From: Psammoneis japonica
Lineage: Eukaryota
Direction: 5' to 3'
Assembly: GCA_008632985.1 (NCBI GenBank)
Contig: QPGO01000054.1
Coordinates: 281,050-345,049 of the forward strand
Length of the DNA: 64,000 bases
Shown here: piece after piece, positions 4,091 through 40,191 of the stretch
Layout: every line of letters starts with the position of its first letter
How positions within the stretch are numbered: position 1 is the stretch's first letter
Position numbers and translations under genes: made by a program
The notes under the pieces: model-generated
Seen by the model: only the letters and a program-made list of their open reading frames with translations
Databases searched by the model: none
Told to the model about the DNA's origin: nothing

Positions 4091-4379
4091 ACCACGTTTC
4101 AAGAGGGCACACCAGATTCTAACGTTGCATCCCTGTTTCTCAAATCTTTCAGCAGGACATTTCATTTATGCAGCACAACGACGTCATTGCAGGGCCACAG
4201 CAGGAGCTGGGGTGGGCCCTGGGAGCCAGAATCGGAGTCGTCGTAGGAGGTGAGGTCAGGCAGTTCGCGTCCTTGCAGAACACATCGGGTTGCCAGTCTG
4301 CTTCGCCATTCAGTGCAAGGTTCTTCTTCATTTCCCATGATTGAAGTGCTATAAGCACTCAGCAAGCGCCCTTTTGCTC

Positions 4380-5115
4380 ACTCGGAGAAAGGCGATTGCA
4401 GCAAATGTCGGGTTTTGCTTTCCCACCAAAGACTTCCCCGTCGTCGGACTAAACAACGTGACCAGCTGCGTCCGCATCAACAAGAACCTGCCCGCAGTCT
4501 CCATGATTTTCGGCTGCTTCCATCAAGTCTTCACCTGACTCTGTCGACTGTGCTTGCACATCGATGATGAAAACAATGAAACAAGAGACGACTCGCTCTG
4601 CACAAGGATGAGACGCATCTGAAATGAGGGAGCTCTTCTGCCCCACATCCCACAAATGTCCGGCGTGCGAGGAGTGGTGGTCCAAACGTTGTGCTTTCAA
4701 TTCTGGGAAAAGAGATGAGTTTTGGTTGTTGTTTGGTGGCATTTTGGATTTCATTTGGCAAAAGAAAACCTGTTGAATTGTGTGCTTTGTCCTTCTTTTC
4801 ATCTTGGCTGCAGGCAAAGCAACCTCCATCCATCAGGAGCACAGGCTCAAAGCCATTGATGGTCAAACACTCTGCTCTGCCCTCAACAAGCCATCTGGAA
4901 GGATGCCTTCAGAGACAAACCTGTTGCAAGAAGCAACAGATGACAAAGACTGGGTCTGTTGCATCTGAACTTTCTCCAAGATGAGTTGGCAATCCTTCTG
5001 CAGCTGTGGGAGGCAACGGAGGGCAGAGCATCAAGGACAATCCTTTGGCCCCACTTGGCACCTCACCACAGGCCATCAAGGAGGTGGAGGCAGGCTTGCC
5101 TTGGGTCAGAGCACT

Positions 5116-5146
<31 letters not shown>

Positions 5147-5147
5147 G
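4380..5147. repeat. Copy 1 of a ~750-bp direct repeat (copy 2 at ~6003-6758), ending in a (CT)n tract; TpA-depleted
   Basis: Aligns nearly base-for-base with 6003-6758, from actcggagaaaggcgattgc to gcacttgatttct. Many differences are CG/TG/CA/TA exchanges. Confidence 0.92.
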
Positions 5148-5499
5148 AACAACAAAATCGGCGCAGCCGATTTTCCGTCAAACATGACAAACAAAGAACA
5201 AGAGCAGCTGGGGCAGAGCCACCAGTTCGGATGTTTGTCCAACCATTTCGACAAATGGCAGGCACAACAACGTTGGCCAAAGTCAGGAGTGAGACTTTCA
5301 TGGTGGCTTCATCAGCGGCCAGCTGCTGTTGTTAACGTGGTTGAGGTTCTTGTTGCGTTAAAAAGATCCAAGTGGTGGAGGACAGGCGAGTGGATTCAAT
5401 GGACTGGATTTGAGTCATTCATCGTGCTGTCTCTCTCTCTCTCTCTCTCTCTCTCGTTGGCCTCCCTGTTTGCAACCCAGCAGGACGAAACTGGGGGGC

Positions 5500-6003
5500 C
5501 GGTGGAGGTGCAAAGGACACAGTGCCAAAGGAGGTTGCTGAGGTTGCACGACCGATTGCAACAAACGATCATGCACTCCAAGCCAATGCGTTGTCAATCG
5601 TGGTTTCGAGTGTTGGCAAGTGGTTGAGAGCAGGGTGGAGAGGCCATCGTTCCTTTCCAAATCTGTTGCAATTTGCTCAATGGTGGGTTGTTTGGATGAT
5701 GTGGGACGTGCAGGAAGATGGGGGATTGGTCTGGGGCGCTTCTGCTGTTGTCGCGTTGCCCCAAAGACGGTTGCGTGCCTTTTGAAAAACGGGTTGGAGC
5801 TTGCTGGGCTTGCAGCCTCAAGCAAGCAAGCAAGTGATGGTGAAAAAGTTTCATCTTCACTTTTGTGTCGGTTGGGTCTGAGCAAAGGTTCTTGAAGCGG
5901 AAGAGCATGCCCACAATTGGGCCGGTGAGCACTCCAGGTGGGTGAGCTGAGTGTGGTGGGACATGCAGATGTAAATTCATCTCTTTCTCACAGAGAGCGG
6001 TGA
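5500..6003 (-). mobile_element. Degenerate fragment of a Penelope-like retroelement (RT C-terminal/thumb and linker region)
   Basis: Translation LCEKEMNLHLHVPPHSAHPPGVLTGPIVGMLFRFKNLCSD...FLHVPHHPNNP...MIVCCNRSCNLSNLL resembles the PLE pattern LYEK..NLYLY.P..S.HP...R...CS...HLPYHP...Y.R..NL..LL, with Tyr replaced by Cys/His. Confidence 0.65.
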
Positions 6004-6758
6004 CTCGGAGAAAGGCGATTGCAGCAAATGTCGGGTTTTGCTTTCCCACCAAAGACTTCCCCATTGTCAGACCAAACAACGTGACCAGCTGCGTCCGCAT
6101 CAACAAGAATCTGCCCGCAGCATCCATGATTTTTGGCTGCTTCCATCAAGTCTTCACCTGACTCTGTCGACTGTGCTTGCACATTGATGATGAAAACAAC
6201 GAAACAAGAGACAACTCGCTCTGCACAAGGATGAGACGCATCTGAAATGAGGGGGCTCTTCTGCCCCACATCCCACAAATGTCCGGCATGGAAGGAGTGG
6301 TGGTCCAAACGTTGTGCTTTCAATTCTGGGAAAAGTGGTGAGTTTTGGTTGTTGTTTGGTGCATTTTGGATTTCATTTGGCAAAAGAAAACCTGTTGAAT
6401 TGTGTGCTTTGTCCTTCTTTTCATCTTGGCTGCAGGCAAAGCACCATCCATCAGGAGCACAGGCTCAAAGCCATTGATGGTCAAACACTCTGCTCTCTGC
6501 CCTCAACAAGCCATCTGGAAGGATGCCTTCAGAGACAAACCTGTTGCAAGAAGCAACAGACAACAAAGACTGGGTCTGTTGCATCTGAACTTTCTCCAAG
6601 ATGAGTTGGCAATCCTTCTGCAGCTGTGGGAGGCAGTGGAGGGCAGAGCATCAAGGACAATCCTTTGGCCCCACTTGGCACCTCACCACAGGCCATCAAG
6701 GAGGTGGAGGCAGGCTTGCCTTGGGTCAGAGCACTTGATTTCTTTCTCTCTCTCTCTC
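6003..6758. repeat. Copy 2 of the ~750-bp direct repeat
   Basis: See 4380-5147; also terminates in a (CT)n run. Confidence 0.92.
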
Positions 6759-6759
6759 T

Positions 6760-9700
6760 GGAGTTGTTGAAGTTCTTGTTCAAATGTCATGCAAGCCTGG
6801 TTCTGTTCACAACAAAATCATGAATTTCAATGACACCCATGACCCAAGCAAGGAGATCACATTGAGCAAGCTGTGAGGCCACTGGAGCAAAGTCATGGCA
6901 TCTCGCAGAGGGCTGACTTGTGCTCTTGCCAACATCATCAAAGCCAGCAGTCCAATGAGATAGAGGGAACTTCTTGTCATTTCTGCTTGCAATCTTGTCT
7001 CATGACAGCTGCTTCAATTGAGCTGCAAATTGGCTCAAGAAATTCTCAGCTTTCAGTCTCAGATGCCTGCTCCCAGCAGCAGAACAGAGAGCACTCACTC
7101 AAAAGCTTTTTAGATTGTCAACAATCAGCTGGGTGCAGACAAACAACAACTTTTCACCTGGGAAATGTGCCCAACCTTTGCAGCTTGTGGGGCAGCTTCA
7201 GCTGTTGGCAGCTGCCTCAATTTTGCCACACATTGGTGCCATTGGTGTCCAAGCCTGAAGATCATCACCTGCTGCTGGAGGCCCCTCTCTGTTCTAAAGT
7301 TGGCTGGTTTGTTGCAACTCTGACACAACAGGGTGACTCATGGTGCTGGTTGGGATGCTGTGGTCAACATGAACCAAACCACTTGGCTTGAAGCCCCTGA
7401 CCTCCTGAAAGTTGTCATGAATTTTCTCCTGGAGCCAAAATGAGGAACTGTGCTTAGATTGCCAATGCACTTGCAATGCTTTGCCCAAGTGAGATTGTGG
7501 GCTGGAGGAGTGAAGTGAAGTCATCCAGGACTTGTCAAGAATGGGCTTGGATGTCCGCTCCAAATGTGTGGCTTTTGGCAGCTCTGGGTGAATCAGAAAC
7601 TGTGTGCTTGAGCAAAAGCAGGTTTAGGCACAAGCATGCACAAAGATCCAGAAGAGTTTTTTGTGGACATTTTGAGCCAACAGGCAAACAAGTGGACCAC
7701 GCCATTTGTGCATCCAATGCTGCCCAAAGCACTGGCACCACACATGGCTGGCACCATGCTGCAGAGCACCAGCCATGCTGTGGTGGAAGTGGTTGGATTT
7801 GGACAAAAAGCAAGTGGCTCATCCACACACAATTTCTGAAGAGGAAACCAAAGATTCATCTCAAGCGCACCTCTGGTGTGGCAAATGCAGCACAACTCAG
7901 TGCCCTTTTGCTGGATCCTTGTTGTGTCAAAGTCCTGTTTGTGTTGTTCACTGTGCATGATGACTGCCATTCTTGCAGAGTCAATGCACAGAGAAGACTT
8001 GGCCAGCTTGGCTTGATTCTGATTTTTGACAACATTCATGCTCTGTTGCCTCTCATGGGAACACACGGCTGGGGAAACCTGTCAGGCAGCTGTGGAGCAG
8101 ATGCCAAGTGGCACCCATGGACCAGGTGTGCAGAGTGGTTGGGCTTTTAACCTTTGTTTCCTCCTTGCCATCATCCTTGCATGAGTGCAACCCTGAGAGT
8201 GCCCTCAGAGCTCAGCACTTGTTGAGGCTGGGCTGTTGCACAATTTTTGTGGTGGAAACTGCAGCAGCTGTTGTTGGAGACAGCTGCTCCCACCAAGTGC
8301 AGAGGCAAGCACAAATTTGTTTTGTCTGGCAGCTGGTGACAAAGTTTGGCTGAACAGACCACAGCTTCAGCCCACTTTGCTGGCTTCCACAGGCAAAACG
8401 AATGGCTCTTGCCTTGCAGACTGTGACTTGCAAGCTGTGCTGGGTTGTTTTTGAGTGGGTCCTCCCATGAAAACAAGTGTTTTTTTTGTCATTCAGACTT
8501 GCTGGGCTGTGTTCAAAAGAGGACATTGTCATTGACAAGCTGTGCTGTGGCCGCTGGCAGTCCCCAAACTGCATTTGGCCTCTGTTGGGGGAGCTTTGCA
8601 AAAGAAATCCAAAAATTTTTCATTTGCCTTTTGGGAAGTTCTGGGGAGACAGGCTGGCAAGGATCATGCATGCAAGGATCATGCAAGTGGCAGCCCCTCA
8701 AATTTTGTTGACTTCAAATGTTTCTCTGTGGCCCGTGACACTGAGCATTGAGAGTGAGCTGTTGAGGGTGACCAACTGATGAGTGGAACAAACAAAGGAG
8801 GTCATGTTGATCCACTGCAGCATCACCCATCCCTCACCTGTGGTGGGGCCTGACAGCTGATGAACTGTGCTGCCATGGTCACTGAGGTTCTTCTGATGGC
8901 ATTGTGCAGCCATTGTGCTCAAGCAGCGCTGGATGTGAGGACAATGATTTTGATTTGCTGTCAGCTCCACGTGCTCTCAAAAGATCTCTGTTGGTGCAGC
9001 AGCAATTTCTGGGAATGGCAAAAGCATTGACAGACAAGACCATTTTTGGACATCTCTGTTGGGCATTCCAAGTGATCTTTGAAATGCCTCACAGGCCACT
9101 TGGCAATTGCCGCAGCACCACTTGTGTGCCTCCTCATGGAACCCCAGGTGTTTGCAGCTGATGGAGCTCCTTGGGTGCTCGCTTGTCAGACATTTTTTTC
9201 TCAAAATCATCCAGCACGTGCTTTGCAAATTTGGAACTGTGAATTGCTGCATTGCACATCATGGACTCTTTGGTGCAGCTGGGCACCATCTTCGTCAGGT
9301 GCACATGGCAGCCCACCAGCCTGACCACACAGTCCTTTGCAGTGAACTCAGCATCATGCACATGTTGGGGTTGTCTTTTCCTTGCACAGCAAAAAATCAG
9401 CCTTTTTCTTTTTTCTGTCCTTTTGTTCCTCCTCTTGGATGGAGTTGATGTTGGACATGATGATGTCCATGTGCACCAGCCATTGCAAGAGGTTGCTGAG
9501 GGGCAAAGTGATGGATCAAGTCATTTTTGTCACAGCATCACATTGGTGCTTCACATGACATGCCACCAACTCCACCGTTGATGAGAAGCTGTGTGGAGAC
9601 CATGGCGCTGCTTGGAAATCTGTGGAGATTTGCTCCTCCTCACTTGTCCTCATGGCACAGATGTTGTCTTTTGCTCAAATTCTTGCCCCAGTTGAGACTC

Positions 9701-9970
9701 CAAGAGCCAACAGATGAACTTGATTTCCCTGCTTGGCACCGTCAATGATGGGCCGACCACCTTGCTTCTTGGCAGGTGGGCACAGCTTCCAAGAAGCCCT
9801 TGCAACATGCTGGTGCTGGAGACACCTCCTTTGCATGCTGCTTCTTCAAGCTGTCAAATGCAATGGACATGACTTGCACCAAATTTTGTTCTTCTCATCA
9901 ATTTTGCAAACTGAGCAATGTGTGTTTCCCGCCAGAGAAACTCGAAGACCTCTGCTTCTCTCATCAGCAC
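6760..9970. mobile_element. Heavily degenerate, unidentified repeat/TE-derived DNA depleted of both TpA and CpG; host of the copia insertion, continuing at 17089-~18050
   Basis: No credible ORF and extreme TA/CG scarcity. The copia TSD shows that 9970 and 17089 were contiguous. Family not recognisable. Confidence 0.45.
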
Positions 9971-10246
9971 TGACAGAAATTGAAGGCAAATGGCAAGAAC
10001 TCAAACAACAACTCCTTGCTGCTGTCTAAATGGCAGATGAGTCTCTGCTCAGAGACCGTCACAGGAGCCGAAAGACGTGTGAGTTGGTACAATCAGGCTG
10101 CTGTTGTCATTCTTGTGAGCCTTGTGGCTCGAAAGCAAACTACATCGCGCGCGAACGCGCAGAACTAAAGCACACAAAACTGTGCGCGGCAAACCAAACA
10201 GCGCGCGACATTTCGCGCACACCCAAATCCTGTTTAAATCCTGTCA
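9971..10246 (-). repeat. 3' LTR of the copia element
   Basis: TG...CA ends; preceded on the minus strand by a purine-rich tract (AAACTGGGGAG, 10247-10257); about 23 substitutions relative to the other LTR. Confidence 0.95.
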
Positions 10247-10259
10247 CTCCCCAGTTTGC

Positions 10260-13200
10260 TTGATGAGTCACAGAAACAGATTCGACTTCGGATGGAATGA
10301 AGTTCCAGAACATGAGGGGGCGGAGAAGGTCCCAGATTTGGGAGCAACCCCAATGCTTGCTGAGAATGTCAGCAGGGTTGCGGGAGCCTTCGATGAAGTG
10401 GAACTCAAGGCAACCAGAGGCAATTGCCTCACGCACACGGTGGAACGACAATGCGGTGTGTCGCTTGTGTAACTTGGAGTGCGGGATGGTGGCACTGTCT
10501 ACAACCGACTTGTTGTCACCGAACATGTAACTGACATTGTGGATCGGGATGCCAAGGTGGCGCAGGGTGATGCGCAGATCGACAATCTGCTCGACACAAG
10601 TCCTTGCGGCAACAAATTCAGACCCGCAGGTCACAGTCTCCACGGTGGCTTGCTTCTTAGAGAACCAATCAGCCGGGAATTTGTTGAGGAAGTGGAGCAT
10701 TGCCATGACAGAGCGTCCGGTGAGCATGCAATGGCACAAGTTTGCATCGACGTAGTGGGTGGCAGTGACGAACTTGCCAAGGGGCGGTGGAGCGTCCTTC
10801 GGGATCATCTCTTCTGCTTCGCCATGCATGGAATGCATCCATTCATGGGCCGGAGCAGGGAGATCCAAAGAGTCGGGCTCTTCAGCACGAACGCGGAGAG
10901 CGCCGTGTCGCATCTTGGAGAGGTAGCCACAGACGCATTTGGCACGGTCCAAGTGGCCTTGACGGGGCACAGCTCGGAAGCTGGAGAGTGACATGACAGC
11001 CGTGGTGATGTCAATTCGACCAAGGGACACTGCCCACTGGAGTGAACCAACAAGAGACTGGAACTTGTGAATGCCATCGGGCCCCAGCAGTTCGGAAGTG
11101 TCCAGTTCGGGGTGGTCACCCTTCTCCAGAGGTGACAGGGCATTGGTGGTGGGTTTCTCCCCAAACAGTCAGGCGCAGCTGTCAACCATGCGCTTGATGT
11201 GCTTGCGCAGAGACAGGTGCAAGGTTCCGTCGGGATCCCGGGAAAAGTCGCAACCCAGATGGAACTCAATGGGTCCCGCACCCTTGAGCTTGAACTTGCA
11301 CTTTTCCGTGAGAGCATCGACGAAGGATTGAGGGTCCTTCACAGCAATGGCGAGGTCGTCCACACAAACGGCAATGCATTCACAGTGGTCGCCGTTCCTG
11401 CGCATCCAAATGTTGGGTTCGGCGCGGCAGGGGAAGAATCCTTCAGCTCGCAGGCAGTCGGCGAAGCGCTCGTGCCAGCGAAGACCAGAGCTGCGCAGTC
11501 CACACAGGGCCTTGTGGATGACAAGGATGTGTCCCTCGAGTTTGCCAAATTCGGGTCCGGCTACAATGTAGAGCTTCTCCTTGGTGGTGGCTTCAAGGCA
11601 GGCATTGCCAATGTCGGTGGCCCATGTCTCTAACTCGTTGAGTTCGGCCAGGAAAATCATCAGCCGAAGGCCACGGAGGGAGACCACTCCAGAGCAGACA
11701 CTGTCGACAGGTGCGTCCGTGAGGTGCCCATCGGCTACGAGTCGTGCCTTGTGGCGACCGTCGTGTTTCACGTTTCACACTGGGTGCACTCGGATCTTCT
11801 TGTGTCCCGCAGGAGGAGTGGAAGACTCAAAGGGCCTGCAGTTGTGGAAGACTTGGCATTCCTCGAGTTGATCCATCTCGAGGTTAGTTGCGTCTCCCCA
11901 TTTGCGGTTGCCGTTGCGTTCGTCTAGTGACATGGCGTGTTTGCAGTTCCGGGGAACTTCGCATCCGTACTTGCAGCGAGGTGCAGTGCGGAAGGAGCGA
12001 AGCTTGGCTTGGTTGGCCATGCGAAATGGCTTCTTTTGGCGCCTCGCGATGGTGCAGAACCGCTTCCAGCCATCAGTGTCGAGAAGTCCATTCTCTCGTG
12101 CATAGATGGCGCAGGTGACGGGGTCGTCCTTGGCAATGATGGCAAGAGGCTCGGACGTGATCTCCCCACTTTCCCATTCAAGCATGATGTTGTAGCTTGA
12201 GCCTTTCCAGGTTGGGTCATGAGGCTTCAGAGGTCCTTCGTGTGACACGATGCGTCGAAATTTCCAAACAGCAGTGTCTTCGTCTTCTTGCTCAATGTGA
12301 TTCATGATGTCGTTGCAGGCAAGGACTTCCTCGCATTCGTCGTTGTTGACAGAGCAGACGAACTTAGTGAGCTCAGGATTGCCGTTCACTTTCCATTCGT
12401 GGTCTTCGACGGCCTTGACGATGCGAGCTCTGTGGCGTTGTCCGTCCTCTTGTGGCTGCATGAGGAAGGTGCGTCTGATGATGTCTTGCGGATCGAAAAC
12501 TGGCATCTTGGGTGTCCTGATCTCCCCATCAGGAGAGTCAACGGGGTTGTCGTCATGGCAAGATTTGATGATGGGTTCAGGTGGCTCCCCATCAGGAGGA
12601 TCAAGACGCAGGTTTCGAACGGCAGGATTGGTGGCAGCGGAGCATGCGTTGGACCGGCAGAGGATCTTCTGAGTCTCGTCAGAGAGAATCTTGAAGGTCA
12701 TCTGGTGGCCGACGTGCTCAGCAATGCCAACAAAGCGTCCACGCAACTCACGGGATTCGGACGGCCAATCGGAGTCATCGAGGTGGAAGCACACGGGTTC
12801 CCACCAGTGAAAGCGAAGCAATGGGCTGATGTCCGGGGTGGAGCCAGCAAGAGTCTCGAGGGGTGTGCGCCAGTGGAGACGTGGGGATGCTGCATGGTTG
12901 AGTGTGAAGCACACATGCATGAGCGCCAGCAGCCATGTGTGGGCGGGCGAACCAAAACGATCCATGACAGTGTTCACCATGCGCTTCACGGTCTGGTGTC
13001 GACGCTCGGCAAAGTTTTGGTGTTGCTGGTGAGGCTCACTTTGCCAGCTGGAGATGAAGAGGGCTCGTAGGATCCCGAGCACCTTGTTGCTGATCTCAAC
13101 TTGAGCACGGTCGCCAATGAGTTTGGATGGGGCACCACGCTCACGGATCTGATCCTCGAGTGTGTTGACAAACTCCTTGTCCGTCTTGGTGCCGCAGACG

Positions 13201-15863
13201 TCAGTGACGGTAGACTCGGTGCCAACAAACAGTTGGGTGCTGGTGCAGCCAGAGTCGACGGCCGGGGTGTCAGCACAAACTGTGTCAGTGGCGACAGGCT
13301 TGTTGCGGCGGTGCACATTAAGGGCGGGGTTGGGTGATTTGCAGGCCTTCCTAAGGTGTGCACCGGCGGGCATGCGGGCGTGCTGCGTGGTGCAGTCAAA
13401 AGCACGACGGACCGCATCGGCAGGCAGGAAGCCAAAGCAAGGCCGAAGAGACTCGAAGGGGGGGTCCTTGGGTTGCACAGTGCGCTCCGGGGGCAGGACG
13501 TCGTCGTCCTTGGGGTCAATCGCGTGTAGATGACACTCGTAGAACACGTCGTCGTTCGGAATGAGGTGATCATCAAGGGCTGACGCGTGATCGGCAGACA
13601 AGGAAGCGGACATGATGGTCTCGTTGACAACGACACGATGACGGCAGTTGCCGCATTCGTCAAATGGGTTGGCAGTGGGATCGTCCTGCAGGTCAGAGAT
13701 CGCGTCGCACCACTGGTCGTCGTCAGTGACAGAGTGATCGAGGACGGAAGGATCCCATGTGTCATCACCGGTGAGGATGACATGGGGCAGGGTGTCCCAT
13801 TCGGCGTCAGTGCAAGGTCGCATGGCAACATGAGGCAGGCCACCCTTGATGTCAATGGGGATGACACAGCCATCAGGGGTGGCAGTGCGTTGCAAGCCGT
13901 TGGGCACCTTGACAGAGTGATCGTTGACATCCTGTTTGTACCATTCGAGCTGGCCGCAGGAATGAATGGTCTTGCCCTTGCCCATGCATGCGTGCTGATG
14001 GAGGATGGCGATGACGGGACCACGCTGGGTCTCAATGACGGCACCAGCGGTGACAATGGGGATGTCCACCAATTGGTGGTCGTCAATGCCCTGAACGTCG
14101 ACTTGGCGAGAGGTGCGTGCAATGACGCGAACGTCGTCACCAGCAATGCCGCCGTTGGCCCCACGATCGACTAGAGCACCAGTGCGTGTGGAGCGATGAG
14201 CAGAGGCAGAGCAAATGACATTGTGGTCATTGACGCGGCGGCAAGTGCGGCCGTTGAGTTCCATGTCATCGGCAGGAGCTGGCGGAGTAGAGGGAGCGGC
14301 AGATGGCCCCGGTCGACTGGCATTGGGGGCTTGGTTAGGAGACAACAGACGTTGTAGATCACCGGGTGGCAGTGGCTTGCGCTTGGTGAGGTGCGCCAGG
14401 ATGGGATCATCCGGAGTGGCACCCACATTTGGAGCGGGGTCACCAGAGTCAGCAGGAGTCGTGTTGGACAAGTTGACATCACCGTCACTCCCAAGGCGTT
14501 GGTCGTGAAGGTTGGCCGTAACAGACTCATGGTGGTTGCTGGCTCGCGGGTTGCGGGGAGGCGGACGAGAATGCTCAAGGATGATCGCCTTGGAGAAATG
14601 GGGCAACGAATCCCAAATCCGCTGGTGGTCGGGAGGGAGACGTTTCCATTGGTCACTGGTGAGGCTGGGACCACGGGTGCAGGCAGCATTGGCCTGAAGG
14701 ACGTCAATGTCACTGTCAATGTCGCAGAACACATCGTCGGACGGTTCCTCGGAGCAGACGTCGTGTGCGTGTGTGGCACGTCGGGGAGCTCGAGGTGTCG
14801 TCTTGGGTTGAAACGCACTGTCGCATTGAGCCGCCACGGAGAGAAGCAGGCCACAGCATTGATCGCATGTGAGGCTCTTGCCACTCTGCGTGCGATGCTG
14901 ATCAGCTTGGTTCTTGACAGCACGAAGTTCCTCGACAGGGTGTGCGGCATTCTCGAGCATGACGCGCTTCTGTCCTTCAGAGAAGTGGTCACTGGCCGGG
15001 ATGAGTGCCTCGCACTTGCGCAACTGATCTTGCCAATGAAGGATGAACCCGTGGGTCGGACCTTTCCAAGTGCCATCACCAAGACGTGCGGTGGTGAGGT
15101 GCGTGAGCAAGGTGGAGGTCTCGACAGATGCGCGGGTGGAGGCGAGCGCACACTCAGACAAGGCGCGGCAGACGGTCTGAGTGTCAGAAGACCCCACATT
15201 TTCGCGAATGAGAGCCTTGCCCTTGTCGGTGAGAAGAATGCGTTCGAAGACGGCGAACATGCACTTTTGCTGTTCAGCAAAGAGCAGTTTGTCTTCGGGG
15301 CTGGTCAGTTTGTACGACGAGTCTAGAATGCACTCGACGTCTTGGGCACGGGCTTGTGCCACAAGTGAGGTGTGCCAAGTGTGCCACTGCTTGTCGGATT
15401 TGAGAGCCATGAAAGCGGTGGGGTCACGCTTGATGCCTCGCTTGAAGTCTCGCACCGGGTCGCGTGCCTTGGTCGGGTTGGTGACATGCGGAGGTGCGAG
15501 GGGTGAGCTGCCGATGGACACAGAAGACATGCAGTCGGGGCTGAGGCGGCAGGCAAGGAACTCGTCATGCGTGAACAATGAGGAGTCATTGGCAACGTCA
15601 AGACCTTCGTGTGCTTTGACAATGTGCAGACTGATTAGAGCTGCTAACACGTTCTTATAGCCGCGGGGCAAAGGGATCACATTAGCGCCGTTGTCGCACT
15701 CAAGCGAGTCGATTTGGGATGGTGTGAACGTGAACAGTTCTTGACACAAGTCCGTGCCGTCTTGGGTCAAAGCCAAACAAAGAGGGCTCCCAGCACCTTG
15801 GGCAAGCACGGTTCCAACAACGTGCTCGAAACCATCGGTTTGTTGCTGACGAGTGAGAACCAT
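10260..15863 (-). pseudogene. Copia gag-pol polyprotein in a single frame with two in-frame stops (11775-11777, 11169-11171) and mutated catalytic motifs
   Basis: Protease LVDRGANGG; integrase VATDTV, SEPHQQHQNFAERR; RT KHDGRHKARLVADG, DIGNACLEA, CVDDL; RNase H YVDANL, GSEFVAAR, FGDNKSV, NPADILSK. The three track ORFs (11775-15893, 11169-11771, 10140-11030) share one frame; the original stop position is uncertain. Confidence 0.93.
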
Positions 15864-16807
15864 GGCAGACAAAAGTGGTGTCAGGACAAGCAATTCTTGT
15901 TGGGAAGTGAAGGCAGTGAAGGCAGACTTGAAACTTGGGTGAGAACAGACTTGACTTGAAATGGACTTGACTTGAAATCTTGAACTGCCTTAAAATCAGA
16001 AGTCGCCGGGCTTTGCTGTCCCGTTCGTTGTCAAGTGCTAAACTTCCTATCCGGTCCGTAGAGTTGTGCCGGCACGTCCGCACCCGCAGCCAGTGGCGCT
16101 TTGGGTTGCTTACGAGTGGAGCAGCGGGTTGTAAACCCCTGCAGGCAAGCTGACTGGAGGTGGACAAGACCCCCGAACCGTTCTCATTTTACATCGGTTG
16201 GATTTCCCGATCAGGCTGGCCAGTTGACGCAGGCGTCAGGCGCTGTGGACGAACGAACAAACACGGGAAAACACCCTCGCCCCAACGTAGGCTGCAATCA
16301 CGGCTGCTTGCTCTCACAGTCATCCTCGTGGACCTGGCAGAACTGTGGAGCACCAGCAGTCTGGGGCAGATCAGGTGCAATGGACTCGGCGTGCTTGTAG
16401 AGTGGCAGCAAAGCCGCAGTCCAAAGAGTGGGTTCAAGTCCTTGGCCGTGAAGATGTGCACACACACATGTCTTCAGCGACGGAGATCCTTGAATGTGTG
16501 GGGTTCTTGACCGTTAACCGTTGAATGGGTGCATCAAGGGATGAGGATCAAGGGTGGACTTGGATGTGACCGTTGATGCATGTCTTCAGCGATCAAAGGC
16601 AGTGTGATCAATCCAGATGTCCAGCGGCAAGGAGACTTGACGGTGACGTTAACTTCCTGCCGATGCCTGGCATTGAATGCGCGTGGACTTGCCGATGCAT
16701 GTAGAACACACACGGAGGTCCACGCAGAGTTGAGGTGGCGTCGTCGGTAAATCAACGACGACGATGGCGGTTGCTCAATGGGTTGACAATGAGCAAGACT
16801 GTTGATC

Positions 16808-17083
16808 TGACAGAAATTGAAGGCAAATGGCAAGAATTCAAACAATGACTCCTTGCTGCTGTCTAAATGGCAGATGAGTCTCCGCTCAGAGACCGTCACA
16901 GGAGCTGAAAGACGTGCAAGTCGGTGTGATCGGGCCACTGTTGTTGTTCTTGTGAGCCTTGTGGCTCGAAAGCAAACTACATCGCGCGCGAACGCGCGGA
17001 ACCAAAGCACACAAAACTGTGCGCGGTAAACCAAACAGCGCGCGACATTTCGCGCGCACCTGAATCCTGTTCAAATCCTGTCA
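16808..17083 (-). repeat. 5' LTR of the copia element
   Basis: Colinear, indel-free match to 9971-10246; flanked by TSD AGCAC. Confidence 0.95.
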
Positions 17084-18031
17084 AGCACAGGACATGGCAC
17101 ACACAGCAAAACTGTCTTCCTTCCTTGTTGGAGCTTGCAAGACCAAATGACATTTTGTTCTTGCTGCAGGCAGCAGTTGTCAAGCGACTGCTGATCTTGC
17201 CATTGACGCGAGTGAACAAACGACAGCTCATGACGCCTGCATGCAGCCACCACCCATCTGCCCAGCACGGCCTTCACTTGGAGAAAGCAGCCAGCAGCCA
17301 GCAGAGAAAACTCTCTCTAGAGAGAGCAGAGGCCCCTCGAGTGGAGAAAACTCTCCAATGGAGCAGAGGCCCCTTTACATGCTCGAGCTGCAGTGCTCGC
17401 ACGCAGCAGGCAGCACTGCAGTGCTGCAGCAGTCGCACCTGTGACAGTGTCTGTCCATGACACGTTGGTTGTCTGGGCTGCTGCAGGCTGTAGATTTCGG
17501 ATTTCCAGATTTCGATCAACACTCTGGGGGAAGATGACTCCAGCCAGTTTCTGGCTGAAAAACGTCTGCTCGTCAGTGCGTTTGGGGGTTTTGCCAGTGC
17601 AATTTTTGTGTGCGCAAAAGACGTCGAGTCTGTCCAGCGCTCGCCAAAGCCCCCCAACGCACAGATTGACAGACTTTTTCAGTGCAAATTCTACACAAGA
17701 TTCTTCAGCCAGCAGCCACGAGACCCAGGCCTTGAGCAAATCCAAACTGGCGAGGCAGGCGCGCTCCGGATTAGCCCCACTCGGGCAAAAAATGGAGCCA
17801 CTCAGTGGCTCGCAACTTGCGCAGCGTAAAACTCGCAACTGACACAACAAAGCAGCACCCACACAGATGCAACCTTTTAACAGAGGCAAAAAGCCATTGT
17901 TGTCAATGCATTGTGTTGTCAGCCGCCACTCGTGTGTGGAGCTCGGTCGCCGTCAAATCACCGTCATGGTCGTTGGCGGTGATTTTCTCACCCCATGGAA
18001 ACAACCGCAGGGCAGTGCCAGAAAAAAATGT

Positions 18032-23638: not shown

Positions 23639-25770
23639 ATGCCCCCAAACAGCTCAAGCCCGAAGAACCTCTCGGATGAGGAACTCAGGAACCTCGATAA
23701 AACGCAGCCTGTTGTGATTGCTAACCCCAGCATTCTTTCTGAAAGAGTCTTAGGGAATCCCGTCCTTCATCGTGCCTGCAAAATCAAGGCCGGTTCAGAC
23801 GTGATTCAGTTCCTGGTGACACAGCATCCTGCAGGTCTAGAGCAACACAACTACGATGGGTACCTTCCGTTGCACTTGGCCTGTCACTGTCAAAGTTACT
23901 CCCTCAAGCCTTCTCGTGGAAGTCAACGAATGGAGCCTACTTTGTCAGTCGTGCAGCTAGTGGCGGAACGGTATCCACAAGCTCTTCGGGATGTGTTTTG
24001 CGGCGCAACTCCTCTTGCAATTGCTTGCATGTCTGACTGCTCTTTGTCTATCATCCAGTATTTGGTCCATCAGGATCCCTTCACTTTGAAAATCCCTGAT
24101 CAACACGGGCGTCTGCCATGGCATTTGTCATGCCAATTCACAAGTCGAGTAGAAGTTCTGGAGTTTATGTATACTGAACAATTCAAAAACAAAATGCTAC
24201 ACAAGCTCACGGGCACCTGGAAACACCATGCGCTGCACTGCGTCTGCAAGAATAGGACACGTTGTGCATCGATGCTGGTGCGCTGGACTGTATCTCACCT
24301 AGGAGTGAAGGGCCTACATATCATGAGTCGCGATAAACAGTTGCCGTTACATGAAGCATGCTGGAACACTTGTCTGGATTCCGCAACTGTCGATTATGTT
24401 GTAAACTCCTATCCTGAAGCCGCTACTATTCGAGGTTCTTGTGGTCGATTTCCATTGCATCTGGTATGCATGGCTCGTCCAAGCGAGAGAGAAAGCCTTT
24501 TCACGCTACTGTTGGCTTTATTTCCTGACGCGGCCAATATAGAGAGTGACTTGGGAGAGACGGCTTTGTACCTTGTGTGTCAACGCAGGGTAGTTTGTGC
24601 TGACGTTGTGAAAGTTTTACTTCGGCTTTCGCCGGAGGGCGCGTCTATTTCAATTCAAGGGATGTTGCCGATAGACTCGCACTGCAAGAATGGGAATCCG
24701 CTTTCAACGCAAGTGGTTCGTCTTTTAGCCAAGGCTAACCCTGATTGCGTCCGTGGGAGGCTCCGTCTAGCATGCAAGAATCCATCGGCACCAGTGGATG
24801 CAGTGAAATTTTTGGCAAACAAAGCCCGGAAGAGCTTCTGCGGAAGGACACAAGTTACCCTTACGGTACGCCGGTGCACTCTTTGCTCGTTGCAAAAAAC
24901 TTTGAAGCAGCGCTGGTCCTGTTACAGATGTGCCCAAGGGCTGCAACACAGATTGATTATCATGGGCAGCTTCCTCTTCACTATGCTTGCCGATATGATG
25001 CTCCACTTGACGTGATTCAGGCCTTGGTGAGAGCGTATCCAGCTGCTGTCGCGACTGCGGACAAAAGTCACGACGAATGGCTGCCTATTCACTATGCAGT
25101 GAAACACGGCATTAAAGCAGAGGCAGTGGGGTACTTATTGGATTGTCATCGCGAAAGCACTCGATGCAGTGGAAGGGACCGGAAAATACCGCTGCACATT
25201 GCATGCATGTATTGTGAGGACGTGAGTGTCCTCGACGCATGTTTAGAGCGAGACTTTGACAGCATCCGTGTCCAGGACAGCTTTCACAATTGTGCTCTTC
25301 ACTTGGCTTGTCAGAAAATGGACAAGTCAATAGACGTTGTCTCATTCCTCATCAAGAGTGATCCCGGGGTTTTATATATTACCAATGATTGCGGTGCGTT
25401 ACCCATACACATTGCGTGTGCGGGAAGCGGGATCAGTTTACCCTTGCTACGGATATTGGTCAAAGCCTCGCCCAGCAGTGTACGGCAAAAGGATTATGGA
25501 AAATGCAAGGATCTCCCTCTTCATATATTGTGCCGCAATAAGTGGGGACCCTTGGACGCTGTCGAATTCCTGGTTGAAAAGTATCCATATTCCGTTCTGG
25601 TCCGAAATAAAAGAGACGAAATGCCGCTTGATGTCGCAAAAAGCACTGGGAAAATAGCGCTCCTTGAAGAGGCGCAGAAGAGAGTGATCAACGACATCAA
25701 GAACATTTTTGTGTCGCTAGGATTGCCCGAGGACTGTTTTCAGTTGATCTGGCAATTTGCTATGAAGTAA
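23639..25770 (+). CDS. Ankyrin-repeat protein of the diatom-expanded LPLHxAC type; apparent 1-bp frameshift near 24822
   Basis: Repeated GxLPLHxAC...V..LV..YP.A units across ORFs 23588-25015 and 24745-25770. One extra A in the AAA run joins them (NKSPEELL). Confidence 0.82.
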
Positions 25771-26918
25771 GGCAGCCCGATAGCTCTAGTATTGTAGAGA
25801 GGGCCCCGTGACTGTGCGAGCTTCCACTTCCTCCCACTTCACCGTCGGCCTATTTCTTTCGAAAAAGAAAACCAACATTTTCCCAGTCTTTATGACGAGC
25901 ACTCTCCAGGGAGAACAATGAACGGCAAGAAACCACATACACGTTGCGCCGCTGCAAGACAATGCTGCGGTGTCGTGCACCAGAAGAGTAGTCGGCAAAA
26001 TAATACCACAAGTTTAGCTTTATTATTTCTGCATCTTGTTGAGCCTTCGTACGGTAGGGTATTAGTGCGGACGGCAGCAGCAATCGACACACGACGACAC
26101 TACAAGAGCGGACTCTCTTCATCGGGTGCGACTTCGGCTAAGCGGTGGACCCCTTCCTCGACATCCTGACGGCCTTCTTGAATACATAAAAATGCGAAAT
26201 ACGCAGCCGTAATGCTAGGAACGACAGCTACAATGCTCCACGCAACTGTCGCATTTGCGACCTCCCATGCTAACTCTCCGTACTTGACAACATAAGATAC
26301 CACCAAGGTCAGTCCGACCAACTTTGCCATAAGCACGCATCGCTCTCGGTAGCAGAATCGGAAGATGGCTGCAGATTTGCCTGCTGTGGTTGCCCTGTTG
26401 GCTCTGCCTCCTCAGCATCCCTGTCGCACAGACTCCATCCATTGTGTCGAGCAATGCGATAGGCAGCAATCATAGTTGTCGTATTGCCTAGGAGCGTAAG
26501 GGCACCTTGGGCGCTGACAAGAGACTCGAGTTCGACTTTGTTGTGTGTCAAGTGATGAGTCACAGCACATGTGGACGACGCGTGCATGGGAAGCGTGCCC
26601 CAAGTTAAGCCTCTCCAAGTAAGGTTGCCAATCGCCCCGCCGTATACCCAAACCAGCTTCATGGCCACCAAGCATTCAAAGACGGATAAGAAATGGATAA
26701 TCCAAGTCGGAATCGACAGAGCATTTTTGGGTTCTGGTCTTATGGCCCAGAAGAGCTTCTCGGGAGCCCAGCAGTTGCCAACCCCAAACAAAAATTGAGA
26801 ATGTACCTCAAAGTTCCGAAAAGTTCCAACAACCACAAAGATCACTAGGAACAACGTGGCTGCCCAAGCGGCAGGCTTCGCTTTGGGGTCAAAAAAGGTT
26901 TGACTGTATGGTCTCATG
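25114..26918. repeat. Copy 1 of a 1.8-kb segmental duplication (copy 2 at 28813-30641)
   Basis: High nucleotide identity covering the ankyrin 3' part, the intergenic region and the DUF2499 3' part. Confidence 0.95.
26100..26918 (-). pseudogene. 5'-truncated, frameshifted copy of the DUF2499 (Ycf49-like) membrane-protein gene
   Basis: NALSIPTWIIHFLSVFE.LVAM..W, WRGLTWG.LP; 1-bp deletion near 26336; similarity stops at 26918. Confidence 0.8.
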
Positions 26919-27695: not shown

Positions 27696-27827
27696 GTCTT
27701 AAGTCCGTCTTAAGTCCGTCTTACGACCGTCTTACGACCGTCTTAAGCCAGCATTAAATTTTATCCAGATTTGTATATATTTCGGTCGTAAGACGGTCGT
27801 AAGACGGTCGTAAGACGGTCGTAAGAC
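27696..27827. repeat. Inverted arrays of an 11-bp unit (GTCTTACGACC/GTCTTAAGTCC x~5 facing GGTCGTAAGAC x4) around a ~36-bp AT-rich spacer
   Basis: Directly visible at 27696-27747 and 27784-27827. Confidence 0.9.
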
Positions 27828-28008
27828 GTTAAGGGTGGGAAATCCCTTGTGTTTTCGACATATTTGCAAATAGCATCAAAAATAACTAACGTTTTTTAAA
27901 ATCATTTATGACGCAATTATGGAAAAAATATACCGACGCGTTCTGCGCTCACCGTGCAAACAACACGACAATGGCCGATAAGCAGATTAGCTACATCCGT
28001 GGGCGCAT

Positions 28009-28776: not shown

Positions 28777-28812
28777 CGTGAACTTGGTTTTTGACACAAA
28801 GGACTTGGAATC

Positions 28813-29466
28813 AAAGCGGAGGCGGTAGGGTACTTATTGGATTGTCATCACGAAAGCACTCGATGCAGTGGAAGGGACCGGAAAATACCGCTGCACATTG
28901 CATGCATGTATTGTGAGGACGTAAGTGTCCTCGACGCATGTTTAGAGCGAGACTTTGACAGCATCCGTGTCCAGGACAGCTTTCACAATTGTGCTCTTCA
29001 CTTGGCTTGTCAGAAAATGGACAAGTCAAAAGACGTTGTTTCATTCCTCATCAAGAGTGATCCCGGGGTTTTATATTACCAATGATTGCGGTGCGCTACC
29101 CATACACATTGCGTGTGCAGGAAGCGGGATCAGTTTACCCTTGCTACGGATATTGGTCAAAGCCTCGCCCAGCAGTGTACGGCAAAAGGATTATGGAAAA
29201 TGCAAGGATCTCCCTCTTCATATATTGTGCCGCAATAAGTGGGGACCCTTGGACGCTGTCGAATTCCTGGTTGAAAAGTATCCATATTCCGTACTGGTCC
29301 GAAATAAAAGAGACGAAATGCCGCTTGATGTCGCAAAAAGCACTGGGAAAATAGCGCTCCTTGAAGAGGCGCAGAAGAGAGGATCAACGACATCAAGAAC
29401 ATTTTTGTGTCGCTAGGATTGCCCGAGGACTGTTTTCAGTTGATCTGGCAATTTGCTATGAAGTAA
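28813..29466 (+). pseudogene. Partial duplicate of the ankyrin gene 3' end (no 5' part, two frameshifts)
   Basis: Matches 25114-25770; 2-bp deletion at ~29073 and 1-bp deletion at ~29381. Confidence 0.88.
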
Positions 29467-29822
29467 GGCAGCCCGATAGCTCCAGTATTGCAGAGAGGGC
29501 AGCGTGACTGTGCGAGTTTCCACTTCCACTTCACCGTCGGCCTGTTTCTTTCGAAAAAGAAAACCAATATTTTCTCAGTCTTTTTGACGAGCACTCTCCA
29601 GGGAGAAGAATACACGAGAAGAAACTGCATAACCCCCCGGTACACGTAGCGCCACTGCAAGACAGTGCTGCGGTGCACGGCACCAGAAGAGAAGTAGTCG
29701 GCAAAATCATAACACAAGTTTAGCTTTAGTTCTGCATCTTGTTGAGCCTTCGTACGGTAGGGTATTAGTGCATATCACATATTGAGTTAGCGGACGGCAG
29801 CAGCACACGACACACGACGACG

Positions 29823-30897
29823 CTACAAGAGCGGACTCTCTTCATCGGGTGCGACTTCGGCTAAGCGGTGGACCCCTTCCTCGGTATCTTGACGGCCTTC
29901 TTGGATACATAAAAATGCGAAATATGAAGCCGTAATGCTAGGAACGACAGCTACAATGCTCCACGCAACTGTCGCATTTGCGACCTCCCATGCTAACTCT
30001 CCATACTTGACAACATAAGATACCACCAAGGTCAGTCCGACCAACTTTGCCATAAGCACTGCATTGCTCTCGGTAGCAGAATCGGAAGATGGCTGCAGAT
30101 TTGCCTGCTGTGGTTGCCCTGTTGGCTCTGCCTCCTCAGCATCCCTGTCGCACAGACTCCATCCATTGTGTCGAGCAATGCGATAGGCAGCAATCATGGT
30201 TGTCGTATTGCCTAGGAGCGTGAGGGCACCTTGGGCGCTGACAAGAGACTCGAGTTCGACTTTGTTGTGTGTCAAGTGATGAGTCACAGCACATATGGAC
30301 GACGCGTGCATGGGAAGCATGCCCCAAGTTAAGCCTCTCCAAGTAAGGTTGCCAATCGCCCCGCCGTATACCCAAACCAGCTTCATGGCCACCAAGTATT
30401 CAAAGACGGATAAGAAATGGATAATCCAAGTTGGAATCGATAGAGCATTTTCGGGTTCTGGTCTTATGGCCCAAAGAGCTTCTCGGGAGCCCAGTAGTTT
30501 CCAACCCCAAACAAAAATTGAGAATGTACCTCAAAGTTCCGAAAAGTTCCAACAACCACAAAGATCACAAGGAACAACGTGGCTGCCCAAGCGGCAGGCT
30601 TCGCTTTGGGGTCAAAAAAGGTTTGACTGTATGGTCTCATGGCATCTTTGAAACCAACGACAATCAGAATGTTGGCTATGGTGAGGAGAGACTCCGCTGA
30701 CCCATGCAACCAATCGCAATTTGCGAGTGAGGAGTGAAAGAGATTCTGCGCCAGAACACCAGCAAGTATCGTTCCAAACACAAAGACAAGCACAAACTGG
30801 AAACCAAAGTTTGCAATATTCGGAGTACGGGTTTGGGGCCTGGATAGAAAATATAGAAAAAGTAGGTACGGCACCAAACTCGCCTGAAAGAACATTC
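29823..30897 (-). CDS. DUF3593 + DUF2499 (Ycf49-like) membrane protein; frameshift near 30472, 5' exon not identified (may be a pseudogene)
   Basis: FFQASLVPYLLFLYFL, FGFQFVLVFVFGTI, LANCDWLHGSAESLLT, then NALSIPTWIIH and WRGLTWGMLP; pyrimidine-rich splice acceptor at ~30898. Confidence 0.7.
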
Positions 30898-38552: not shown

Positions 38553-39761
38553 CTATAGATTACTCTTTTGCAATGGAGGTGGGTGCCGTTTAATGATTTC
38601 TTCGGCCATTTGGACAATTGTTGGGAGCAACGAAGCTACGCGATTGGCCGACGCGCTGCTCGCGACTCCATCCTTTGCTCTTTGTGCAACACCCTGAACA
38701 ATCACAGCATTCTTGAAAAATAAAAAGGCCAAGTAGAAGCCACTCCAATCGATTGCTACCTCCTTTGGTATTCCAGCATTATATTCACAATACATTTTCA
38801 TCAGCTCTTGGCGGGTTGGGATTCCGGTCCCTCTCAAATCCATACCGCCAATACCTGCAACACCCACGCCCTTCTCCGATCCGGGCATGTAGTACATCAT
38901 TTGGAGGTTGGCAACATCGCAAAGAGGATCTCCGATTGTACTTAATTCCCAATCGAGGACGGCAATGACCTTTGGCTCGGTTGGGTGAAAGACTAGGTTG
39001 TCCACTTTGAAGTCCCCGTGAAGAAGTGTGCTTTGATTTGGACAGTACGAGGCAGCATGCTGGAGAGTATGAGCAATGTCCTCGAGTTCCGGAAAGGGTG
39101 TACCCGACAGCTGTGATTGTTTCTTGCTGACCGTCATGAGACGATTTATTTGGCGCTCCACATAACGTCCTCGCCTACCATAGTTTTCCAGGCCCACCTC
39201 GTTTGGTTTTACAGCATGCAGATTTGCAAGAGTCGTCAAGACATTCCGATACGCCTCGCTTCGTTCAGAAGACGACATTCCTGGCAGTGACGGGTCTGTA
39301 AAGATTCGGCCTTGCACGTATTGCATGAGGTAAAACTCAGACCCCAGTACTTCTTTTTCGCGACAGTACGCGATGGGAGTAGGAACAGGCACACGTTTGT
39401 CATGGTGAAGCTGATTGTGCCGATCAAGCGATTGCAACACTCGAAACTCCCGATGCAAGGCATGAGCTGATGCGTGGGCCACTTTTTGCGGCTTTTTCCT
39501 CAGCACCATGCGCAAGGGTTGAGAGTCTGTTGATTGTGCACAATCGATAATTACGAGATACGTCGGGTTTGATTGACCAAACCCAAACTGGCGAACTAGA
39601 ATGTGTTCCTCAGTCAACTTCCCGACACTACCGTCAGTCAAGGAATAATTAGAAAGAAGAGATTGTACGTTGGGCTGCGATCTCATCCATTCTGCTAAGC
39701 TAGCCACGTTCAGGGACTGACGAACAACAGTCGTAGCCTGGCCATTGTCTCCCCCCTCCAT
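38553..39761 (-). CDS. APH/phosphotransferase-like protein (ACAD10/11 N-terminal kinase-like domain), possible PTS1-like SNL end
   Basis: QFGFGQSNPTY, LRKKP..AHALHREFRV, LLHGDFKVDNL, VLDWELSTIGDPLCD. Confidence 0.9.
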   Translation of the reverse strand: MEGGDNGQATTVVRQSLNVASLAEWMRSQPNVQSLLSNYSLTDGSVGKLTEEHILVRQFGFGQSNPTYLVIIDCAQSTDSQPLRMVLRKKPQKVAHASAHALHREFRVLQSLDRHNQLHHDKRVPVPTPIAYCREKEVLGSEFYLMQYVQGRIFTDPSLPGMSSSERSEAYRNVLTTLANLHAVKPNEVGLENYGRRGRYVERQINRLMTVSKKQSQLSGTPFPELEDIAHTLQHAASYCPNQSTLLHGDFKVDNLVFHPTEPKVIAVLDWELSTIGDPLCDVANLQMMYYMPGSEKGVGVAGIGGMDLRGTGIPTRQELMKMYCEYNAGIPKEVAIDWSGFYLAFLFFKNAVIVQGVAQRAKDGVASSASANRVASLLPTIVQMAEEIIKRHPPPLQKSNL

Positions 39762-40191
39762 TCTGCCGGCAGCGCTATTACCCTCCCTGAAACAGTCGGT
39801 AGTCACGTGAGGAGTAAAATGAGGACACGGAGAAACGTGGAACAGGGCAACTGACGTCTCTCACGCCATTGTGGCCATTGTCTTCAACCTTCAAATTGCA
39901 CAGAGCACAGACGATAAGGATGATGCTTCCGCCCGCGCCGCCCGGGTTAAATCTCGCACAGCGCACGGACGAGTCCACGATTCAAACGCGAACAACTCCT
40001 AAAGGAACAAAGACCACGATTCAAACGCGAACAACTCGTACTAAGAAGTAAGATTCAGCAAGATTCGATGTTCCGCTCGAAAGCGTTGCGTGGGTTGTCA
40101 ACAACCAGAGGTCAACAATGCCCTGAGACGAGAGAGAATAAAGAGAAGATCGTACCATCTAGTAGAGACTACTACATCGGTTATTTGCTGA

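Follow-up and report, generated by a model that had tools for sequence, protein, structure and literature searches.

A Copia element and its long terminal repeats

The window analysed here, a stretch of 64,000 nt of contig QPGO01000054.1 from Psammoneis japonica, contains a Ty1/Copia-type retrotransposon on the minus strand, inserted in an already degraded block of a diatom-like nuclear genome. The element is bordered by two long terminal repeats (LTRs) that differ from each other by transitions only, nearly all of them in TpA, CpG, CpA or TpG dinucleotides. The following features were assigned to the element, with positions counted from the first letter of the window:

9966 to 9970, no strand: target-site duplication AGCAC, left copy, 5 bp; read from the sequence, the same 5 bases follow the other LTR
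9971 to 10246, minus strand: 3' LTR in the element's orientation, 276 nt, TG...CA termini; from the alignment
10247 to 10257, minus strand: purine-rich tract ...AAACTGGGGAG adjoining the 3' LTR, polypurine-tract-like; sequence reading only
10140 to 15989, minus strand: polyprotein frame, 1950 codons with 2 internal stops; open reading frame (ORF) reading
11775 to 11777 and 11169 to 11171, minus strand: the internal TGA stops of the polyprotein
11169 to 11774, minus strand: Copia-type reverse transcriptase RVT_2; Pfam E = 3.7e-24, profile positions 30-228 of 244
11169 to 11171, minus strand: TGA made by a CpG transition; the family-majority letter on the plus strand is G at 11171, giving CGA, share 0.94
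16808 to 17083, minus strand: 5' LTR in the element's orientation, 276 nt; from the alignment
17084 to 17088, no strand: target-site duplication AGCAC, right copy; read from the sequence

The LTRs are the true pair of one insertion, as shown by their TG...CA termini, the AGCAC on both sides and the lack of a second copy in the window: none was detected by self-BLAST, and tblastn with five homologs gave no match beyond the element. A search with the polyprotein yielded 686 homologous proteins at E ≤ 0.001. The best 120 of these were mostly about 1850-1900 aa long and at most 61 % identical, and RVT_2 (PF07727) was their only precomputed Pfam family. About 1400 aa lie ahead of the reverse transcriptase in the polyprotein of the element, and no Pfam integrase or gag was matched at E ≤ 1 in the element or in two homologs (P0001, P0008). 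Even in these unmutated members of the Copia-like family RVT_2 was the sole Pfam match, with no integrase, protease or gag, and the N-terminal 1300 aa are effectively unannotated. The element resembles the Ty1/Copia elements of diatoms (CoDi groups; PMC2806351, cited from parts of the article) in RVT_2, short TG...CA LTRs, the 5-bp duplication and a polyprotein of about 1900 aa; its best homolog is 61 % identical.

The two LTRs of one retrotransposon are identical on insertion. Alignment of 9971-10246 with 16808-17083 by MAFFT gave 276 columns with zero gaps, and a script counted 23 differences, all 23 transitions, with 0 transversions. TA stood against CA or TG at 4 sites (columns 119, 196, 220, 265) and CG against TG or CA at 6 sites (columns 76, 99, 115, 125, 191, 249), while 6 double sites (12 nt) had CA in one LTR and TG in the other (columns 39-40, 110-111, 120-121, 129-130, 138-139, 254-255); the single difference of another C/T class was in column 30. 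Pyrimidine-purine (YR) dinucleotides cover 144 of the 276 positions, yet took 22 of the 23 differences (binomial P = 7e-6; Fisher P = 4e-6). Unchanged among the 72 YR sites of the alignment were 19 CA/CA, 19 TG/TG, 16 CG/CG and 2 TA/TA sites; the changed ones comprised 6 of CG versus CA or TG, 4 of TA versus CA or TG and 6 of CA versus TG. Three other repeat pairs of the window had transition to transversion ratios of 19:3, 39:21 and 10:10, pooled 68:34, and at the pooled ratio the chance of 23 transitions among 23 differences was P = 9e-5 (Fisher P = 4e-4).

Divergence of the LTR pair was 8.3 % overall (23/276) versus 0.76 % at non-YR sites (1/132). For this pair, LTR dating is inflated about eleven-fold, a factor with a wide error because of the single non-YR difference; that same difference suggests a young element. 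A preliminary description of this DNA, made from a manual alignment, had reported 23 LTR differences, all transitions, 22 of them in YR dinucleotides, with neither indels nor transversions. The count was reproduced by MAFFT and the script, the 276 columns were gap-free, and the class counts given there (four TA, six CG, six doubles, one other C/T) agreed exactly with the computed alignment. That pairwise alignment had been proposed as a check, and it gave no ordinary transition to transversion ratio in the LTR pair. The further claim that the divergence was mutator-driven and would mislead LTR-based dating also holds for this pair, given 0.76 % at non-YR sites versus 8.3 % overall.

Direction and location of the changes

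The LTR differences alone give no ancestral state; conserved protein columns were therefore used as an outgroup. The polyprotein, with X at its stops, was aligned with the first 70 homologs of at least 1700 aa among the 120 listed, and columns with at least 85 % agreement among the 70 homologs were scored as conserved (n = 614). The element agreed at 542 of the 614 columns and differed at 72. Single-step changes from TA to TG or CA explained 32 of the 72 differing columns. Tyr had become Cys in 19 of these and His in 6, codon junctions accounted for 5, and the remaining two were a Val>Ala and an Ile>Met, the latter ambiguous. Another 16 columns were single-step changes from CG to TG or CA, and the rest consisted of 1 other transition, 11 single-step transversions and 12 multi-step changes. 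Single steps of the type A>G or T>C were located at TpA in 32 of 33 cases, the exception being Ile>Thr at codon 702, and those of the type C>T or G>A lay within CpG in 16 of 16. Reverse changes (His>Tyr, Gln>stop) and C>T or G>A changes outside CpG were absent among the 614 conserved columns.

The retention of single residues gave the same direction. Conserved Tyr was lost at 28 of 32 columns and kept at 4, versus residues that a reverse change would hit: His was kept at 21/21, Gln at 18/18 and Trp at 21/22, with the lone Trp loss a Trp>Phe exchange, which is not a transition. Conserved Asn was kept at 18/18 columns and other residues were retained at 74-100 % (Thr 23/31; Cys 2/3). As a control the 70 homologs were treated alike; they lost on average 1.8 of about 32 Tyr and at most 12. 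The polyprotein contained 0.56 % Tyr and 3.54 % Cys, compared to homolog means of 3.85 % and 0.89 %, and no Tyr-poor relative was present among the 120 listed homologs (minimum 2.86 %). The loss of TA in the element is much stronger than that of CG. In P0071, a homologous Copia polyprotein from another data set, 12 of 33 conserved Tyr were gone, 5 of them replaced by His and another 5 by Cys; this may be an earlier stage of the same TpA signature in a different organism.

A strand bias accompanied the losses. At Tyr codons, where both directions are equally visible, there were 19 sense-strand A>G changes and 6 T>C changes (P = 0.015); for the TA sites as a whole the numbers were 25 and 7, a count that carries detection biases. 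Such a bias fits a lesion favoured on the non-template strand or, alternatively, additional editing at the RNA level before integration. The plus strand of the element has a strong positive GC skew of 0.16-0.19 at 12001-16000, and the A>G excess on the sense strand may be connected with it.

The CA/TG double sites of the LTRs require two hits. From the 16 kept and 6 single CG sites, a model of homogeneous CpG decay gives an expectation of 0.28 doubles, where 6 were seen (Poisson P of at least 6 = 5e-7). With a TA loss of p = 0.86 per LTR, the level of the coding region, and about 16-22 ancestral TA sites, the expectation is 6 doubles, 4-5 singles and about 0.4 TA/TA sites, compared to the observed 6, 4 and 2; some 16-22 ancestral TA are a normal content for 72 YR sites. 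The six doubles are best read as mostly ancestral TA resolved on opposite strands. The preliminary description had derived them from TA or CG resolved oppositely. The coding region and a tandem array described below indeed gave direct examples of both origins, but for the LTR doubles the reading is refined to mostly TA, since CG decay predicts only 0.28 of them. Its statement that both YR palindromes drain into TG and CA is in line with the 32 TA and 16 CG single steps and the absence of any reverse step. No clear motif protecting TA was recognised around the 56 remaining TA sites.

The location of the process was followed with ratios of observed to expected dinucleotides (O/E) in windows of 500 nt. 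The element lies between two depleted flanks, and a second depleted block is separate from it:

about 4250 to 9970: older block holding the insertion; TA O/E 0.0-0.1, CG 0.8 falling to 0.0-0.2, CA+TG 1.4-1.9
9971 to 17083: element; TA O/E 0.1-0.36 (overall 0.16), CG 0.65-1.0 (overall 0.86), CA+TG 1.4-1.6
17089 to about 18000: right flank; TA O/E 0.14-0.16, CG 0.5-0.8, CA+TG 1.4-1.7
about 42000 to 50400: second depleted block; TA O/E 0.0-0.1, CG 0.0-0.13, CA+TG 1.6-2.0
44796 to 46407: degenerate tandem array inside the second block, units of about 195 nt, 65-82 % alike

The composition is normal again from about 18000. Depletion was confined to the element and the two blocks (TA O/E 0.0-0.2), and host genes were spared: 12 host ORFs with Pfam families had 1.4-5.1 % Tyr, a TA O/E of 0.43-0.68 and a CG O/E of 0.89-1.09. 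The TpA frequency of the old blocks was 0.0019-0.0024, G+C was raised alongside the loss of TA (0.563 vs 0.476), and none of their 77 ORFs of at least 90 aa had a Pfam match. As the element is poor in TA but has largely kept its CG and the old blocks are poor in both, TA was lost first and CG later. The second block, 8.4 kb long with edges sharp to about 500 nt, looks like the end state of the same process. Among the 7 units of its tandem array, CA and TG were mixed in 9 of 22 all-YR columns; 1 of these 9 columns retains TA in two units and 2 retain one CG.

Duplications in host DNA served as controls within the window. A tandem duplication of an ankyrin-repeat gene region (25108-26918 and 28807-30641; 1.8 kb, 94 % identical) had kept 62 TA/TA and 87 CG/CG sites and differed by 39 transitions and 21 transversions. 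A dispersed repeat of 371 nt differed by 10 transitions and 10 transversions, its TA sites being kept. Because these host duplications show ordinary spectra and retain TA, being duplicated is not in itself what sets off the process. A direct repeat in the older block (4380-5139 and 6003-6759; 760 nt, 96 % identical) had no TA left and differed mainly at CG, with 19 transitions and 3 transversions. Each of its copies ends in a (CT)n run within the TA-free block, and they may stem from an older element, either as its LTRs or as a tandem duplication of it.

The host part of the window is characterised by long exons and pentatricopeptide repeat (PPR) genes. A kinase-like gene at 38553-39860 had organism-named matches only in Nitzschia, Cylindrotheca, Pseudo-nitzschia and Fragilariopsis, raphid pennate diatoms, with identities of 52-61 % to these diatom matches and 69 % for the best match overall. 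The diatom-like assignment is based on this one host gene; comparison with a protein atlas led no further than eukaryote, plant-like family. Between the ankyrin duplicates, self-BLAST revealed an imperfect palindrome of 123 nt at 27706-27828 with an arm identity of 78 %.

Copies of the family and timing of the losses

Other copies of the element were examined in run X1, the single sample containing the stretch. Its contigs were matched to the element at a likeness of at least 80 %, and the majority letter of the X1 contigs was taken as the family state for the best-supported 40 of 557 variable places, 39 of these in the element. Rare variants are lost from the X1 contigs, and the assembly itself may derive from X1. 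On the element fell 14,122 X1 contigs, with a summed word depth of about 46,000-245,000 compared to 54-69 on the flanks; although this depth should not be taken as a copy number, the family clearly has many copies. Relative to the element copy, the variable places comprised 486 transitions and 66 transversions.

Among the best-supported 40 places, a family CG had become TG or CA in the element at 12 sites and a family TA at 6 sites; the other listed differences were 4 CA/TG doubles, 4 other transitions, 3 transversions and 6 minority-only places. Two of the CG sites lie in the LTRs. The family letter G at 10095 indicates that CG became CA in the LTR at 9971-10246, and the family letter C at 16906 that CG became TG in the LTR at 16808-17083. 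The family codon was Tyr at 11201, 11365 and 10826 and Val at 12646, all matching the homolog consensus. Since the family copies keep TA and CG at these sites, the losses are confined to this copy or to its sub-lineage. Codon 1591 showed a two-step change from TG to CA: Cys in 69 of 70 homologs, TGC in the family, CAC in the element. At codons 1715 and 1722 the family was divided among TA, TG and CA, with Tyr as outgroup state. The stop at 11169-11171, for which the family has CGA, corresponded to Arg in the matching column of 36 of 70 homologs.

The single-copy parts of the locus agreed with the X1 contigs, with 1 difference in 335 positions on 9608-9942 and 1 in 240 on 17084-17323 at a depth of about 60. 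At 10451, 10540 and 11209, the depth left for the window's letter was 53-72, about one genome copy. Position 9712, in the old depleted block, is A in the window (CAG) and G in a single-copy X1 contig (CGG); this CpG-type difference is either a polymorphism or a recent change.

Derived states were present in both LTRs and on both strands; therefore the changes arose in integrated DNA and not in RNA or cDNA. The loss at TA sites was about 0.5-0.86 per LTR, compared to 1 difference in 132 non-YR sites. TAA and TAG triplets occurred at 2.3 and 2.9 per kb in the element, and each at about 9 per kb in host DNA. Because the process removes TAA and TAG and does not create stops, the nearly open frame does not indicate a young element. 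As a rough extrapolation, a TA loss of 86 % would take about 1e5-1e6 generations, if the rate of the chlorarachniophyte Bigelowiella natans held in another organism (6.85e-7 per A/T site per generation, with TpA as 3.3 % of dinucleotides; bioRxiv 10.64898/2026.01.13.699255, cited here and below from parts of its text).

Probable hypermutation of integrated DNA and its possible causes

The changes took place after insertion, in defined dinucleotide contexts and in one direction, were restricted to transposon and junk blocks, and affected TA before CG. We consider it probable that they result from a post-integration, region-targeted hypermutation of TpA to TpG or CpA accompanied by a slower decay of CpG, all LTR differences originating from these two drains. 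After integration, a region-targeted process would convert TpA into TpG or CpA by A:T>G:C changes on either strand of the palindrome, nearly to saturation. CpG would decay into the same products more slowly than TpA, and the six CA/TG doubles would be ancestral TpA with opposite-strand outcomes in the two LTRs. The TpA drain is presumably of the same kind as the TpA-only hypermutation of viral inserts in B. natans, for which adenine deamination was proposed, and the CpG drain would be 5-methylcytosine deamination in CG-methylated transposon DNA, a common course wherever transposons carry methylation.

Several observations weigh against this reading. The evidence comes from one LTR pair. The Tyr test sums all change since the homolog consensus, before and after insertion. 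When TA loss is modelled as homogeneous on the basis of the 2 kept and 4 single sites, p comes out at 0.5 and the expected number of doubles at about 1, again too few, so that the fit to TA requires either heterogeneity among sites or the saturation level of the coding region. The ancestral letters of the six LTR doubles lie outside the best-supported 40 of 557 variable places. At 10886, 11218, 11219, 12646 and 14596 the window's letter appeared in no X1 contig, and the private changes there are unconfirmed. Finally, the same blocks show CpG decay (6/23 LTR differences, 16 codons), while the parts of the B. natans report considered here contain none, so that the match is incomplete.

Other explanations differ in the direction, the time or the chemistry of the change. 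In formal terms C:G>T:A could describe each of the 23 LTR differences, as expected for a RIP-like (repeat-induced point mutation) or methylation-only deamination of cytosine, with TA as its product (CpA>TpA) and the doubles derived from CpG. The conserved columns point in the opposite direction, however: His>Tyr, Gln>stop and C>T outside CpG are all absent, and His (21/21) and Gln (18/18) were kept where only 4 of 32 Tyr remained. TA is depleted and not enriched, 0.28 doubles are predicted instead of 6, and the host duplications are untouched. The C>T-only reading with doubles from CpG was rejected on the outgroup test and the doubles model, and its probability is practically nil. An ADAR- or APOBEC-like editing of the element's RNA or cDNA before integration would agree with the sense-strand excess of A>G (25 vs 7; 19 vs 6) and could have added internal changes. 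Yet both LTRs share one template, and derived states are found in both of them and on both strands; the doubles demand opposite-strand hits in the two LTRs, and flanking blocks that do not resemble transposons are equally depleted. Pre-integration editing as sole cause was ruled out by the LTR data, and as the leading process it is hardly credible. An artefact, in which modified bases in repeats are miscalled and stay unpolished since short reads are unplaceable in a high-copy family, seems very unlikely as well, if slightly less so. It would account for changes that are all transitions, at palindromic sites and restricted to repeats, and for the five listed sites without the window's letter in X1 contigs. 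But X1 contigs at a depth of about 60 reproduced single-copy parts of the TA- and CG-free blocks, the window's letter kept about one genome copy of depth at 10451, 10540 and 11209, the LTRs have no indels between them, and the depletion is graded by age from the element to the old blocks. Moreover, lines of another alga that were sequenced by Illumina acquire this signature de novo (bioRxiv 10.64898/2026.01.13.699255).

Two alternatives retain hypermutation of integrated DNA and concern its chemistry. The depletions of TA and CG share blocks and borders, which would be expected from one enzyme system, a chromatin-targeted deaminase acting on A in TpA and on C in CpG, and the preprint on B. natans cites ADAT2-type enzymes reported to edit both A and C in DNA. 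The two rates are far apart, however (element TA O/E 0.16 vs CG 0.86), 230 of 231 changes in the B. natans lines were at TpA without a CpG signal, and CG methylation of diatom transposons suffices for the CG part (PMC9998398, cited from parts of the article). We regard a single system as unlikely, although it is the strongest of the alternatives. Somewhat less likely again is a thymine lesion, i.e. a modified T in TpA, e.g., of the hydroxymethyl- or formyl-uracil type, that mispairs with G and yields T>C. As TpA is palindromic, the sequence cannot separate A>G from T>C on the opposite strand, and the sense-strand excess of A>G (19 vs 6) is compatible with an adenine or a thymine lesion alike. 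A modified T with a preference for TpA occurs in some protists. For the present lineage, the sources examined gave no indication of such a base.

The preferred reading, TpA hypermutation with slower CpG decay, has its closest counterpart in mutation-accumulation lines of B. natans. According to the parts of bioRxiv 10.64898/2026.01.13.699255 considered here, 231 of 302 nuclear mutations fell into two integrated viral regions, and in these silent inserts 230 of 231 were A>G or T>C, all on TpA. The rates were about 6e-7 in the inserts and 3.5e-10 elsewhere, roughly 1000 times the background, and hypermutation occurred in 11 of 15 lines (same preprint). Its low-TpA coding set, with a mean TpA of 0.0018, was enriched in reverse-transcriptase and DDE domains; an ADAT2-like adenine deaminase was proposed, converting A to inosine that is read as G, and its Discussion states that ADAR favours U before the edited A. 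CpG, LTR and Copia are not mentioned in these parts of the preprint. Common to both systems are A>G and T>C changes at TpA that give TpG and CpA, the long-term loss of TpA with a gain of CpA+TpG, the restriction to foreign, presumably silent DNA and the sparing of host genes, and the TpA frequency of 0.0019-0.0024 in the old blocks is near the mean of the low-TpA set. Unlike the giant-virus and virophage inserts of a chlorarachniophyte, the target here is a high-copy LTR retrotransposon of a diatom-like stramenopile, and the losses are near saturation. The spectrum is also not purely AT>GC: CpG G:C>A:T is present, while outside CpG no G:C>A:T was observed at conserved columns.

Fungal RIP is likewise a context-specific hypermutation made up of transitions only, and it too destroys mobile DNA and produces sharp-edged blocks with skewed dinucleotides. 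RIP converts C to T (CpA>TpA in Neurospora) and makes AT-rich DNA and stops. The changes described here are, in contrast, mainly A:T>G:C at TpA, remove TA, TAA and TAG, raise G+C and spare host duplications; TpA is not the product, and duplication is not the trigger. The decay of methylated CpG resembles the CG>TG/CA changes at 16 conserved codons, 12 family-majority sites and one stop codon, but it accounts for only 6 of the 23 LTR differences and for neither the TA sites nor the doubles. Loss of DNMT5a in a model diatom depletes DNA methylation and releases young transposons, a result that supports methylation as the cause of the CpG part (PMC9998398). Editing by APOBEC3 or ADAR likewise leaves deaminase-type, context-dependent, transition-only marks on retroelement copies; it acts on RNA or cDNA, before integration and on one strand, whereas the integrated copy was changed here in both LTRs and on both strands.

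The 2026 preprint on a chlorarachniophyte is so far the single description of a TpA-specific A:T>G:C hypermutation acting on foreign DNA. The literature searched contained no report of it in diatoms, and the parts of PMC2806351 and PMC9998398 considered here do not describe it. New are the host lineage, the target class, an abundant LTR retrotransposon, and the added CpG component. This suggests that TpA hypermutation is widespread among major marine algae and serves as a defence against transposons, not only against viral inserts. ORFs in such elements are uninformative on activity and protein-domain searches fail on mutated copies. Targets can be mapped by dinucleotide scans for low TA and high CA+TG. 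The sense-strand excess of A>G and the TA-first, CG-later order offer handles on the mechanism. We raise as a tentative idea, more doubtful than the hypermutation itself, that diatoms and chlorarachniophytes share an old chromatin-guided DNA-editing defence that erases TpA, probably by adenine deamination, with CpG loss possibly included. If so, transposons would be disabled without stops, via their Tyr, Ile, Val and Thr codons and regulatory TA motifs, within perhaps 1e5-1e6 generations. TA-free, CG-free and CA/TG-rich blocks would then be a fossil record of this defence across the supergroup of stramenopiles, alveolates and Rhizaria (SAR), in which LTR clocks would be unusable.

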